Below are positions 4,817-6,996 of a stretch of DNA of 64,000 nt, piece after piece. This stretch comes from Escherichia phage vB_EcoS_AKFV33. Both the position numbers and the translations under genes were made by a program. Location of the stretch: sequence record NC_017969.1; one strand, 5' to 3'. The notes beneath the pieces are model-generated. The model was not told the origin of the DNA. It worked only from the letters and a program-made list of their open reading frames with translations, and made no database searches. Numbering within the stretch: position 1 is the stretch's first letter; the number at the start of each line of letters is the position of its first letter.

Positions 4817-5764
4817 TTATTTATTACGCATATCCATGATCATTTGGCCATCATAACCAGTACCAACTACCGTCTGTGGTACACCACCTTGATACTTCTG
4901 AGCACGGATCATTTCAACTTCCAGTTGCTTCCAGCGAATCATCTCAGGAGTAATGGTACGTTGCAATGCGGCGTTAGCTTCAGCTTCTTTCTTAGCTGCG
5001 TACAGTTTAGCATCTGCGTCACGTTCATTAGCAATAGCTTGGTTGTTGCGAGCTTCACGATCTGCTTCTGCTTGTTTAACTTTTTGCTGTGCTTCCTGTT
5101 CAACACGAGCTAATTCAGCTTTAGCAGCATTAACCTGTTCTTCACGAACTTTGGTATTCTGTACCTGTTCCATGATTACCGGTGGCAAAGTAATATCCTG
5201 AAGGAACACCTGCTTAACTGTGTAACCATATGGGCGTGCATACTCTTCAACTTCCTGTTGAATTGCAGTTTGCAATTGAGCCTGAATTTTAGCATCAAAT
5301 AAATCTTGTGCTTTAGGTACAGACTTACCAAACTCACGAATAGTAGACAGTAATTTTTCAGTTACATATTTGTCTAACGCTTGATCCTGAGTACCTGCAT
5401 TAATACGGTTAATCGGTGCTTTAGAACCATCAAACTGCAACATAACAGTCAGGTCAACAGTGGATTTAAACTTATCCTGACTAGGAACCTGAAGTTTATC
5501 TAATTTTAGAGCAATATCTTTAGTACTAAAAGTATCAAAAGAAGCAAAAGGATTTACAATATGGAAACCAGGTAATACTGGATTAGGATCAACTTTACCC
5601 AAGAAAGTCTGGGTCTTAACAGTACCGTCTTGAACAACGGTATAGGAGTTAAGAGCTAGAACTAAACCTGCTAAACCAACTACAGCACCAATCCCCCAAC
5701 GTTTAATAGTACGAATTACTTTCTGCTCAGAAGTCAGTTCTTTCATATTTTTAGTATTAAACAT
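4817..5764 (-). CDS. SPFH/band-7 (prohibitin/HflC-like) membrane protein
   Basis: N-terminal TM helix, band-7-like core, Ala/Gln/Glu-rich coiled-coil C-terminus. Confidence 0.7.
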   Translation of the reverse strand: MFNTKNMKELTSEQKVIRTIKRWGIGAVVGLAGLVLALNSYTVVQDGTVKTQTFLGKVDPNPVLPGFHIVNPFASFDTFSTKDIALKLDKLQVPSQDKFKSTVDLTVMLQFDGSKAPINRINAGTQDQALDKYVTEKLLSTIREFGKSVPKAQDLFDAKIQAQLQTAIQQEVEEYARPYGYTVKQVFLQDITLPPVIMEQVQNTKVREEQVNAAKAELARVEQEAQQKVKQAEADREARNNQAIANERDADAKLYAAKKEAEANAALQRTITPEMIRWKQLEVEMIRAQKYQGGVPQTVVGTGYDGQMIMDMRNK

Positions 5765-5798
5765 ATATTTCCTTTGTTTTAGTTACAGTTAATAAAAT

Positions 5799-5873
5799 TG
5801 GCCGAGGTGACAGGATTCGAACCTGCATAAAGGAATTTAGAAGACTCCTGCCTCTCCCTTAGACTACACCCCG
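5799..5873 (-). tRNA. tRNA-Arg (anticodon TCT)
   Basis: acceptor CGGGGTG/CACCTCG, anticodon stem GGAGT/ATTCC with loop CTTCTAA, T-arm GCAGG-TTCGAAT-CCTGT, CCA encoded. Confidence 0.55.
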
Positions 5874-6375
5874 TTTAAGTATTTTTAAGAACTCTCGTAA
5901 AAACTCTTAAAAATACAGACGATACCGGGAGAGTCATAAGTCTCACTCATTAAGTATTTCAAGACAAAATACAGTAACGTCTATTATTTTCCAGTTTAAG
6001 TCAGGGTGACTTAGTGGTTATGTCCTGCGGTATATTGAGGACTCGGTTAGGCTTGGGGTCATGACTTCCCGCCTTTTGCTGCTACTCAACAGGAATTATC
6101 GCGAATTACCTGTGCTATTGTGCACCATTAGTGACATCTCTCATGTCAGCATTTCCCACTTTGTGGATAGCTTGAAAAACTACTCCGATGTGGAGAAAGA
6201 ACTTCACTATCCTAGAATACCTTCTAAAGTTCTTCTTTAGCCTGGACATAGTTAAACCGTAATAAAACTATTCAGCAGACTGGTTGGTTAGTCTGGAACC
6301 AACTACCGCGTGGTTTAGGCAGTGCGCAACTAACCTCGGAAGCTTTTACGTTAAAAGCATCAGTTATCCAGTTCT

Positions 6376-6448
6376 TACCGACCGTAGGATTCGAACCTAC
6401 ATCTTCCACCAGTTACGGCTTGATAATACCAATTATACTAGGACGGCA
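6376..6448 (-). tRNA. tRNA-like element, anticodon arm not resolvable
   Basis: perfect T-arm GTAGG-TTCGAAT-CCTAC and 6/7 acceptor pairing; no convincing 5-7-5 anticodon stem-loop; no CCA. Confidence 0.3.
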
Positions 6449-6524
6449 GTGTTACTACATAAGTGATTTCCACACCCCACTATTTATAAATTAGATGCCT
6501 AATTATCATCTAATTTATGAATAT

Positions 6525-6553
6525 ATTATATAGAATTTATAAGCATTTAGCAA
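6525..6553 (-). promoter_or_regulatory. early promoter (TTGCTA-17-TATAAT)
   Basis: motif plus downstream ATTCATAAATT box. Confidence 0.5.
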
Positions 6554-6561
6554 ATGAATTT

Positions 6562-6996
6562 TTAGAAAAATTCGCTAGCAATCAAAGCAGTTGTTTTACC
6601 TTCATAACGCCCTGGAAACTCTGCCTTAATGGTTTTCATTAAGAGAGCTTTGGTAATGCCGGGGTTTAGCTTAACCAGTTCTGCAAAGTATTTACGAATT
6701 TCAGTTTCAGTCAGTTGACTTGGCTGATACTCTTGCAGCATGGAATAAAGCAGTTGCTCATAGTCTACATCAGTAGGAACTTTCGTACCAACTTTAATAG
6801 CGCGCTGCTTTGCATTTTCTAGAGCCTTAATCTGAGCTTTCAGATAGGCTACGAACTCGGTTCGAGTAACAATATCTTTATCAATACGTTGCAGGTCGCC
6901 AATCATGGTCTGAAGATTAAGCGCCCGCTCTTTATCACCGTGAGTACGTGCTAGACTAAGCAGTCCACGAAGGGTCATTAGGATATTTTCACCCAT
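6562..6996 (-). CDS. GatB/YqeY-like domain protein
   Basis: C-terminal pattern EYQPSQLTETEI...KALLMKTIKAEFPGRYEGKTTALIASE resembles YqeY family. Confidence 0.5.
   Translation of the reverse strand: MGENILMTLRGLLSLARTHGDKERALNLQTMIGDLQRIDKDIVTRTEFVAYLKAQIKALENAKQRAIKVGTKVPTDVDYEQLLYSMLQEYQPSQLTETEIRKYFAELVKLNPGITKALLMKTIKAEFPGRYEGKTTALIASEFF

Follow-up and report, generated by a model that had tools for sequence, protein, structure and literature searches.

SPFH/band-7 and YqeY-family genes in the early tRNA region of the T5-like phage vB_EcoS_AKFV33

Gene order and transcription signals

The window analyzed here, a stretch of 64,000 nucleotides from Escherichia phage vB_EcoS_AKFV33 (NC_017969.1), is Tequintavirus DNA with 98.8% DNA identity to phage NBEco002. 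Two of its minus-strand ORFs concern us, both with an ATG start: one at 4817-5764 (315 aa) encodes an SPFH/band-7 protein, and one at 6562-6996 (144 aa) encodes a YqeY-like protein. They are homologues of T5.080 and T5.081, with 97.5% and 60% amino acid identity, respectively; this identity marks both as genuine genes and not chance reading frames, and both are present where a preliminary description of the sequence had placed them. The locus is made up as follows:

4762..4793, minus strand: Rho-independent terminator closing the SPFH unit (13-bp stem with 7 G-C pairs, then TTTTCT)
4817..5764, minus strand: SPFH/band-7 membrane protein CDS (Pfam, phrog_200, T5.080 homology, AF2, Foldseek, dN/dS)
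5770..5774, minus strand: Shine-Dalgarno sequence AAGGA, 5 nt ahead of the SPFH ATG (read from the sequence)
5799..5873, minus strand: tRNA-Arg(UCU), upstream of the SPFH gene in the same transcript (ARAGORN; Rfam tRNA, 49.3 bits)
5874..6524, minus strand: untranslated leader, equivalent to the stable RNAX of T5 (T5 annotation: RNAX between P16-17 and tRNA-Arg)
6525..6553, minus strand: T5-type early promoter TTGCTA-N17-TATAAT (promoter scan 10/12; position of T5 P16-17)
6562..6996, minus strand: YqeY-family CDS (phrog_1460, hhalign, AF2, PDB matches; T5.081 homologue)
6996..7166, minus strand: DUF7616 small basic protein, 56 aa (Pfam DUF7616, 113 bits)

The gap between the SPFH and YqeY-like genes is ~800 bp; both belong to the early region and share a strand, with tRNA-Arg between them.

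The SPFH transcription unit runs from the promoter through the RNAX leader, tRNA-Arg and the SPFH gene to the terminator, and leaves the YqeY-like gene outside. The exact promoter pattern is found six times in the window, where 0.06 occurrences would be expected, and in the T5 annotation T5.080 is followed by an "efficient bidirectional rho-independent terminator". The tRNA-Arg(UCU) is 100% identical to its T5 counterpart, and two further tRNAs, tRNA-Ser at 4092-4180 and another at 4011-4085, were located downstream of the SPFH gene by ARAGORN and Rfam. The RNAX leader also holds a degenerate tRNA-like element at 6376-6447 (Rfam tRNA, 35.5 bits), which ARAGORN does not call, and neither program detects tRNA-like sequence past 6447. 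Of the two genes said to lie among the tRNA genes, it is thus the SPFH gene that has tRNAs on both sides, while the YqeY-like gene lies at the island's outer margin.

Compared with T5 RNAX, the leader is 79% identical overall, and its core (6225-6474) reaches 98-100%, above coding DNA. We rejected constraint as the explanation: phage Eps7 has unrelated sequence in place of 6161-6508, and the near-identity to T5 is for this reason attributed to mosaic exchange. The predicted RNA fold of RNAX is no better than that of shuffled sequences (z -0.62).

Upstream, the stop codon of the DUF7616 gene overlaps the start of the YqeY-like gene (TAATG, read from the sequence), and translation of the YqeY-like protein is coupled to that of this small basic protein, which has a net charge of +6. 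DUF7616 is present in 437 phage records, compared with 458 that have the YqeY-like gene, and adjoins it in T5 and in two coordinate-checked records (SP15 and LVR16A).

The SPFH/band-7 protein

The SPFH ORF matches Pfam Band_7 (PF01145) with 63.6 bits, against a gathering cut-off of 23.6, and phrog_200 with an E-value of 7e-86; together with the fold match described below, this bears out the original SPFH/band-7 assignment. Its parts are:

5651..5698, minus strand: hydrophobic core WGIGAVVGLAGLVLAL, codons 23-38, an uncleaved signal-anchor with a K/R-rich tail ahead of it
5090..5611, minus strand: Pfam-matched SPFH domain, codons 52-225 (Band_7 profile positions 13-176 of 176)
4820..5182, minus strand: coiled-coil helices and conserved C-terminal tail, codons 195-315 (AF2 secondary structure; conserved alignment columns)

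From its N-terminus, the protein comprises a single signal-anchor, the SPFH domain, a coiled coil of ~95 residues and a C-terminal tail that is conserved in the family alignment as GGVPQTVVG..Y.G.MIMD.R.K. In the AF2 monomer model (pLDDT 79), a helix at 12-38 is followed by strands at 41-192 and helices at 195-270 and 273-290. Foldseek matches this model with probability 1.0, over 266-322 columns, to the cage subunits of erlin, PHB, HflK/C, QmcA and stomatin. According to both methods, the order of alpha/beta SPFH domain, long coiled coil and C-terminal tail is the layout of the cage-forming members. By analogy, the phage protein would form a homo-oligomer, either ring or cage, that walls off part of the inner membrane, and we consider such an assembly probable.

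An N-terminal anchor is found in all 23 relatives inspected (mean Kyte-Doolittle value of an 18-residue window, 1.6-2.9), and in each of the 23 the N-side flank of the anchor carries a net charge of +2 to +6 and the C-side flank -1 to +1. Following the positive-inside rule, the K/R-rich N-terminus would stay in the cytoplasm, and because of this the SPFH domain would quite likely face the periplasm, as in HflK/C. The protein contains no cysteine and is negative for a lipobox regular expression, while a lipobox-like motif appears in only 1 of the 23 relatives. A protein without cysteine is not a lipoprotein, and the database label "lipoprotein", carried by the PHROG and RefSeq names, is therefore wrong.

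The family has 738 phage records, at least 280 of them from phages of Klebsiella, Aeromonas, Vibrio, Enterobacter and Cronobacter, and in tblastn searches unrelated Straboviridae and Grimontviridae phages show 80-84% identity over residues 39-313. The N-terminal 38 residues fall outside this match and are variable in the family alignment. At the loci inspected, the homologues from T4-like, Privateer-like and Vibrio phages (55-84% identical) are all outside any annotated tRNA cluster; neither such a cluster nor YqeY is found at the four non-T5 loci. Structurally similar SPFH proteins are found in many phages and in giant viruses, and where phage SPFH genes appear in the literature, the domain is noted and the function given as unknown (e.g. 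PMC12752171). Our literature search on T5.080 and T5.081 returned no mention of either.

Near the gene, the five closest ORFs scanned with Pfam (3604-8007) match Toprim, DUF7616, Hydrolase_2, cREC_REC and a zinc-ribbon, with no NfeD or protease partner among them. Two candidate partners were considered and rejected. A conserved small protein beside the SPFH gene was dismissed as the neighbors differ in every lineage inspected. The PF07486 cell-wall hydrolase, a neighbor here and near the SPFH gene in Privateer, was dismissed on its distribution, which is quite different (1287 phage records, including Pseudomonas, Campylobacter and Erwinia phages).

The SPFH gene is missing from the viable T5 deletion mutant T5st0, in which the YqeY-like gene is reduced to codons 1-58, and the band-7 gene is reportedly absent from BF23, a relative of T5 (PMC12752171). 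This agrees with the earlier proposal that neither gene belongs to core replication. At the same time, the SPFH gene has a dN/dS of 0.03 relative to T5 (dN 0.013, dS 0.45); judged from substitution rates of this kind, purifying selection shows that both the SPFH and the YqeY-like gene matter in nature.

The YqeY-family protein

As a single sequence, the YqeY-like protein scores 18.4 bits with Pfam YqeY (PF09424), which is under the gathering score of 27 and is a partial match (residues 78-135). A precomputed PF09424 match is present in some close relatives. The ORF matches phrog_1460 (E 1e-40), and its family profile gives 708 library matches, of which 33 of 40 sampled are PF09424. With hhalign, the comparison to YqeY (a set of 28 proteins, all of which pass PF09424) yields 99.9% probability and an E-value of 2.2e-34 over 141 columns, and a profile search finds the B. 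subtilis structure 1ng6 (E 1e-19) and, with an E-value of 0.002, the tail of GatE. The AF2 model (pLDDT 87.7) agrees with this: in a Foldseek search of the PDB, the first six matches are YqeY without exception (E 2e-5 to 1e-3), and the next has an E-value of 0.6. By profile and fold, ORF 6562-6996 is thus a full-length stand-alone YqeY protein; the assignment first made from the sequence stands by family profile, hhalign and structure, but not by single-sequence Pfam. Profile searches, which the preliminary description had named as the test of both assignments, support SPFH through Pfam and YqeY through hhalign. NCBIfam gave nothing meaningful for either protein.

The gene falls into two halves:

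6712..6996, minus strand: YqeY N-terminal helical domain, codons 1-95, a cassette whose alleles are exchangeable between T5-like phages
6565..6711, minus strand: YqeY-C, amidotransferase-tail-like, codons 96-144, the conserved half

Codons 1-95 show 42-47% identity to most T5-like alleles, with a pairwise minimum of 29.5%, and are saturated relative to T5 in both pS (0.74) and dN (0.65). Codons 96-144, on the other hand, are 65-100% identical among T5-likes and align to residues 92-142 of B. subtilis YqeY and 570-625 of the GatE tail; against T5, the C-terminal half has a dN of 0.027 and a dS of 0.29, a ratio of ~0.09. The family comprises 458 phage records, essentially all from Enterobacterales phages. 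For the origin of intermediate proteins that bridge the phage and bacterial YqeY families, a cluster look-up returned almost only metagenomic contigs.

The GatB_N catalytic cradle domain is absent from the 144-aa protein, whose sole Pfam match is YqeY and whose whole length the YqeY fold covers, and since it has no GatB catalytic domain it is not an amidotransferase; the database label "tRNA amidotransferase" is wrong. Residues 96-144 likewise lack KxGKxK, the Lys-rich motif that is specific to the tail of GatB (PMC2811023), and in the NBEco002 and T5 stretches compared no annotated feature carries a GatA or GatC product name.

What the conserved half might bind can be approached through its homologues. 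The GatB tail, homologous to YqeY-C, has been placed on the tRNA D-loop (PMC2811023), and a YqeY domain increases the affinity of GlnRS for tRNA-Gln (PMC1865053). The D. radiodurans domain worked in cis only (PMC1865053), an observation that makes a free tRNA-binding factor less likely. The links reported for bacterial yqeY are to bS21 (PMC13374519) and, in preliminary data, to OLE RNA, and not to tRNA. Except for the AKFV33 allele, the phage relatives are near-neutral or acidic (pI 5.3-6.6), which is atypical for RNA binders. By analogy, the C-terminal half would bind tRNA or another structured RNA, a proposal we rate at even chances. E. coli is stated to have no yqeY (PMC13374519), and the phage would then supply a factor reportedly missing from its host, possibly for its own tRNAs.

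Proposed roles in infection and known systems

Taken together, we narrowly favor a view of the SPFH and YqeY-like genes as two independent, dispensable early accessory genes in a deletion-prone tRNA region, with no functional pairing. Their placement in the tRNA island had been offered as functional evidence; this argument lacks support, as the SPFH homologues at the loci inspected in other phages sit outside annotated tRNA clusters. A promoter also splits the two genes here. The suggestion of host membrane and translation manipulation is plausible, but it draws on family knowledge and goes beyond the sequence, because the SPFH genes inspected elsewhere are outside annotated tRNA clusters, the two genes form separate units, and there is no protease or NfeD partner among the neighboring ORFs scanned. 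For the SPFH assembly itself, we tentatively suggest that during infection it would modulate proteostasis in the host inner membrane, or the integrity of that membrane; quality control of the FtsH type is the leading candidate. On a parallel reading, which seems to us quite doubtful, the protein would build a periplasm-facing cage that sequesters FtsH or a defence effector.

Taking the PHROG and RefSeq product names at their word would make the SPFH protein a lipoprotein and the YqeY-like protein a tRNA-dependent amidotransferase (GatB). We lend practically no credence to this: the SPFH protein has neither cysteine nor lipobox, the 144-aa protein spans the YqeY region only and lacks KxGKxK, and E. 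coli charges via GlnRS and AsnRS directly and is not known to have GatCAB. It is also very improbable that the SPFH gene, the YqeY-like gene and the tRNA island form one host-takeover module acting on membrane and translation. The closeness of the genes around tRNA-Arg would suit such a module, as would a loose RNA-repair association in Proteus phage Privateer, where the SPFH gene comes after an RtcB tRNA ligase and an ATPase. However, a consensus early promoter separates the two genes, their phyletic spread differs (738 vs 458 records), and neither the four non-T5 loci nor the reported lack of the band-7 gene in BF23 (PMC12752171) fits a single module. A role in conflict is better placed, if still unlikely: instead of scaffolding proteostasis, a periplasm-facing SPFH assembly would exclude superinfecting phage or protect the inner membrane against membrane-targeting abortive-infection effectors. 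The gene is accessory and horizontally mobile, with 76-84% identity across unrelated lytic phage families; it is under an early-type promoter and under strong purifying selection despite its laboratory dispensability; its conservation is confined to the predicted periplasmic part; and similar structures recur in many phages and giant viruses. Against this, no PADLOC defence model matches the SPFH protein (or the YqeY-like protein), no partner gene is conserved, and our literature search found no published phenotype.

For the YqeY-like protein, an action on the ribosome (linked to bS21) or on phage stable RNAs, instead of tRNA, seems rather improbable to us. In bacteria, yqeY shares transcription and regulation with rpsU (PMC13374519), the preliminary link to OLE RNA points the same way, the coupling to the 56-aa basic DUF7616 (net +6) echoes the rpsU-yqeY order, and T5 encodes the stable RNAX directly downstream of the gene. 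Yet what the phage family conserves is the tail domain to which contact with the tRNA D-loop is ascribed (PMC2811023), and DUF7616 is unlike bS21. We had considered DUF7616 as a bS21 analogue that would mirror the rpsU-yqeY synteny, and rejected it for lack of similarity by Pfam and by BLASTP with a bS21 sequence. Quite doubtful, in our estimation, is a further possibility, in which DUF7616 and the YqeY-like protein form a phage-specific tRNA-handling module in a host without YqeY, the conserved C-domain on the elbow of phage tRNAs and the N-domain diversified by conflict with the tRNA-targeting immunity of the host. The swapped N-domain would shield phage tRNAs from anticodon nucleases, or be sensed by these.

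Both genes are already catalogued in T5-like phages; what the present work corrects are the mis-annotations "lipoprotein" and "tRNA amidotransferase", which have propagated across hundreds of T5-like genome records. Viewed as independent accessory functions, each gene is of interest on its own. The SPFH family would make a tractable subject among virus-encoded membrane scaffolds, being a single dispensable gene under strong purifying selection that is common to unrelated lytic phages. Through the YqeY-like protein, the function of the poorly understood YqeY family could become accessible for the first time, in a host reportedly without YqeY and in a phage with tRNAs that are already implicated in the evasion of tRNA-targeting defences.

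The closest comparison is phage T5 (NC_005859), where both genes have the same position, order and strand and the same flanking tRNA-Arg, RNAX, promoter and terminator. T5 differs in the N-terminal allele of the YqeY-like protein and in having three plus-strand genes, T5.077-079, between the Toprim and SPFH genes, all three of which AKFV33 lacks.

Among cellular SPFH systems, E. coli HflK/HflC-FtsH (7vhq, 7wi3, 9cz2) shares with the phage protein the single N-terminal anchor, the SPFH domain and the long coiled coil; neither has an NfeD partner, and the orientation predicted for the phage protein would be periplasmic as well. HflK/HflC is a K/C pair, whereas the phage has one SPFH ORF between tRNA and terminator, with 16-19% identity and no match to an HflK or HflC equivalog (NCBIfam, E <= 0.1). 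QmcA-YbbJ of E. coli (8z5g) is the best sequence-level match of the SPFH family profile among solved structures (E 2.7e-7), and QmcA, like the predicted phage assembly, is a homo-oligomeric cage from one SPFH species. QmcA is paired with an NfeD gene and predicted to face the cytoplasm, and so, though nearest in sequence, it fits poorly with the HflK/C-like orientation; the phage protein has the opposite predicted orientation and no adjacent NfeD.

The YqeY-like protein shares with stand-alone YqeY (B. subtilis 1ng6, C. jejuni 8xje, V. parahaemolyticus 8xjg) a two-domain all-helical fold (TM 0.53-0.69, 17-19% identity) and the motifs YxPxQL(T/S)ExE and GxYDGK. The phage gene adjoins tRNA genes and is downstream of DUF7616 and not of rpsU; and unlike in these comparators, the phage N-domain is hypervariable inside one genus. 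The GatB/GatE tail and the YqeY extension of D. radiodurans GlnRS are homologous to the C-terminal half; the phage protein has neither the catalytic cradle nor the Lys-rich KxGKxK and is fused to no enzyme.

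Gene context and transcription units

Both open reading frames of the preliminary description are present on the minus strand with the coordinates proposed for them: the SPFH (band-7) gene at 4817-5764 (315 aa), a homologue of T5.080, and the YqeY-like gene at 6562-6996 (144 aa), a homologue of T5.081. The SPFH protein is 97.5% identical to its T5 counterpart (gene dS 0.45, dN 0.013, dN/dS 0.03) and the YqeY-like protein 60% (dS 0.29 and dN 0.027 for the C-terminal half of the gene), and neither is a chance ORF. The 4-kb stretch around both genes shares 98.8% identity with Tequintavirus NBEco002 and has matches in 466 T5-like phage records; with a G+C content of 39%, a minus-strand gene block and at least 13 tRNA genes within the first 6.5 kb of the window, the region agrees with the tRNA-rich early region of phage T5. 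The claim that both genes lie among tRNA genes holds for the SPFH gene, which has tRNAs on both sides; the YqeY-like gene sits at the island's outer edge.

Features around the two genes
4011-4085, minus: further tRNA downstream of the SPFH gene (Rfam 38.2 bits, missed by ARAGORN)
4092-4180: tRNA-Ser, downstream of the SPFH gene
4202-4720, minus: Toprim-only ORF, 172 aa, database label 'DNA primase'
4762-4793: 13-bp terminator, predicted to end the RNAX leader/tRNA-Arg/SPFH unit
5799-5873: tRNA-Arg(UCU), ending 34 nt before the SPFH start codon
5874-6524, minus: untranslated leader of ~650 nt, equivalent to the stable T5 'RNAX'
6525-6553, minus: early promoter TTGCTA-N17-TATAAT, directly after the YqeY-like stop codon; counterpart of T5 promoter P16-17
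6996-7166, minus: DUF7616 gene, 56 aa, net charge +6

The window has six exact copies of the promoter pattern, where 0.06 would be expected (the others at 4196-4224, 8038-8066, 11236-11264 and 15857-15885 on the minus strand and 33114-33142 on the plus strand); the pattern looks like the T5 early-promoter consensus at transcription-unit starts. The predicted order is promoter 6525-6553, RNAX leader, tRNA-Arg, SPFH gene and terminator, and the YqeY-like gene is assigned to the upstream unit with DUF7616. There, a TAATG at 6994-6998 (minus) overlaps the DUF7616 stop with the YqeY-like start, implying translational coupling. Because a promoter separates them, and because their families are distributed differently (738 SPFH records vs 458 YqeY-like, with SPFH widespread beyond T5-like phages), the two genes are not one unit and do not form a module. 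A ~59-nt promoter-bearing element (6506-6564) has three further matching places in the Eps7 locus.

The leader contains a tRNA-like element at 6376-6447 (minus; Rfam tRNA, 35.5 bits) with intact acceptor, D and T arms and an unpaired anticodon stem, which ARAGORN did not call. Positions 6225-6474 are 98-100% identical to T5; since Eps7 carries unrelated sequence in place of 6161-6508, we read this region as a mosaic cassette, its identity being no proof of constraint. The fold of the RNA (z-score -0.62) does not beat that of shuffled sequences. Immediately 5' of tRNA-Arg, a long A+U-rich hairpin (5875-5918, minus), seen only as a spurious microRNA-family match, may serve to process or stabilise the RNAX-tRNA-SPFH transcript.

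At the position matching the 4011-4085 tRNA, NBEco002 is annotated with tRNA-Met; the T5 annotation has, in the same relative position, a CAU-anticodon tRNA-Ile2 beside tRNA-Ser3. The Toprim ORF gave only sub-threshold Pfam Toprim matches and a weak PADLOC match to the DRT 'RTasDnaG-like' model (22.6 bits); it is intact in the window and in T5 (T5.076), and annotated as two CDSs in NBEco002. In T5 (8065-9672 of its locus) the Toprim and SPFH genes are separated by T5.077-079, all three on the plus strand, together with a bidirectional terminator and a nick site that has been mapped; the counterpart in the window (4721-4816) is only ~96 bp, terminator included.

Fold, predicted topology and spread of the SPFH protein

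The SPFH assignment is borne out by Pfam Band_7 (63.6 bits against a cut-off of 23.6) and by structure. An AlphaFold model built with 23 family members as input (pLDDT 79) shows the architecture: an N-terminal helix (residues 12-38), a mixed alpha/beta domain (41-192), a 76-residue helix (195-270) and a second helix (273-290), with a short conserved tail at the end. In Foldseek the model aligns over 266-322 columns, at probability 1.0, with cage subunits of erlin, prohibitin, HflK/C, stomatin, QmcA and flotillin. E. coli QmcA is the closest solved protein by sequence (E 2.7e-7, family profile). Orthology to HflK/C or QmcA was rejected: a Pfam scan of neighbouring ORFs found no NfeD gene, the HflK/HflC equivalog models are unmatched, and there is no paralogous partner; the protein belongs to its own phage SPFH subfamily, phrog_200.

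The inherited product name 'lipoprotein', also carried by T5.080, is wrong, since inspection of the sequence reveals neither a cysteine nor a lipobox; a lipobox-like motif occurs in only one of 23 relatives. In all 23, the segment ahead of the hydrophobic core carries a net charge of +2 to +6 and the following 15 residues are approximately neutral, so that the positive-inside rule predicts an N-in, C-out signal anchor with a periplasmic SPFH domain.

The 738 phage records span T5-like siphoviruses, T4-like myoviruses of Klebsiella, Enterobacter, Cronobacter and Aeromonas, 7-11/Privateer-like phages and Vibrio phages; many other phages and giant viruses encode structurally similar proteins. Residues 39-313 are 80-84% identical between T5-like phages and Slopekvirus or Privateer, while residues 1-38 fall outside that match and vary in the family alignment, which makes the predicted periplasmic portion the part that is conserved and exchanged horizontally. 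In the loci inspected, the genes adjoining SPFH differ from lineage to lineage. In Privateer (606-4940 of its locus), an RtcB tRNA ligase and an ATPase precede the SPFH gene and a PF07486 hydrolase follows it. Upstream of the YqeY operon, the window has a PF07486 cell-wall hydrolase (7235-7702, minus; N-terminus signal-peptide-like by eye) and a cREC_REC 'cyclic-phosphate processing receiver' protein (7690-8007, minus). This loose RNA-repair and cell-wall neighbourhood could not be substantiated. The Eps7 record (548-1608 of its locus) shows two CDSs, of 849 and 201 bp, for the SPFH gene; the DNA aligns contiguously to the window at 85%, and the two CDSs probably reflect a frameshift or a split made in annotation.

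The YqeY-like protein and its mosaic gene

As a single sequence the YqeY-like protein falls below the Pfam threshold (partial match, 18.4 against 27 bits), with weak PDB matches only, but the assignment is recovered with profiles. A profile from 20 T5-like homologues retrieved 708 proteins at E <= 0.001 from a library of 1.84 billion; PF09424 is found in 33 of 40 scanned sequences (the query and 39 of the 708). Profile-profile comparison with 28 proteins, all passing PF09424, gave 99.9% and E 2.2e-34 over 141 of 144 residues, and the six best PDB matches to the seven-helix AlphaFold model (pLDDT 87.7) are YqeY of C. jejuni, B. subtilis and V. parahaemolyticus (TM 0.53-0.69; next match E 0.6). 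Together, these matches validate the YqeY assignment over the full length.

Among T5-like phages the protein is a two-part mosaic. Residues 96-144 (6565-6711) are 65-100% identical; residues 1-95 (6712-6996) form allelic classes that share just 30-47% identity, and their synonymous sites are saturated. The halves combine variably (P0014: N 44%, C 98%; P0007: N 93%, C 76%). As the hypervariable N-half lies between the conserved C-half and the highly conserved DUF7616 (identity of 90% or more in 404 of 437 records), the alignments suggest repeated recombinational cassette exchange. DUF7616 is directly upstream in T5 and in two records compared by coordinates; a small basic protein followed by YqeY resembles the bacterial rpsU-yqeY gene order.

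Accessory roles and known systems

In the viable T5 deletion mutant T5st0 the SPFH gene is gone and the YqeY-like gene truncated; the band-7 gene and its Toprim neighbour are reported as missing from BF23, a natural T5 relative (PMC12752171), and the NG_S8 record keeps only an SPFH remnant matching residues 274-315. Both genes are thus accessory, under purifying selection in nature and dispensable for laboratory growth, in agreement with the view that they are not part of core replication. The preliminary interpretation, manipulation of host membrane and translation, is partly supported: accessory status and domains were right, and placement in the tRNA island is a weak argument for function. 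The domain calls were already known: GenBank, for instance, lists a slur09 phage product as 'SPFH domain / Band 7 family protein' and one of phage smaug as 'YqeY protein domain-containing protein'. The useful by-products are corrected annotations, a predicted topology, a map of the transcription units and the cassette mosaicism of the N-domain.

In the mechanism that we favour, the SPFH protein would self-assemble into a cage that faces the periplasm, has its anchor in the inner membrane and isolates a membrane patch. The periplasmic orientation is quite likely and cage formation likely; the target, most plausibly inner-membrane protein quality control by precedent of HflK/C-FtsH, or else membrane integrity, is put forward tentatively. 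We found no function reported in the literature on phage SPFH genes. The main rival, that the protein serves in conflict by excluding superinfecting phage or by protecting from membrane-acting defence effectors, seems unlikely. For the YqeY-like protein, chances are about even that the conserved C-domain binds tRNA or another structured RNA together with DUF7616. In D. radiodurans GlnRS a YqeY extension enhances tRNA-Gln binding, in cis only (PMC1865053), and the tail of GatB and GatE, a homologue of YqeY-C, has been placed at the D-loop of tRNA (PMC2811023). Bacterial YqeY may bind OLE RNA. In bacteria rpsU and yqeY are co-transcribed; E. coli is stated to be without yqeY (PMC13374519). A ribosomal or bS21-type role is the rival here and rather improbable; DUF7616 has no sequence similarity to bS21. 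Nothing supports catalysis.

Compared with known systems, the YqeY-like protein matches no more of GatB than the helical-plus-tail region which GatB has in common with YqeY, and Pfam finds no catalytic domain, which rules out the amidotransferase reading behind the T5.081 product name ('tRNA amidotransferase'). The orientation predicted for the SPFH protein is the same as that predicted for HflK/HflC, and opposite to that predicted for QmcA and YqiK (PMC10434171).
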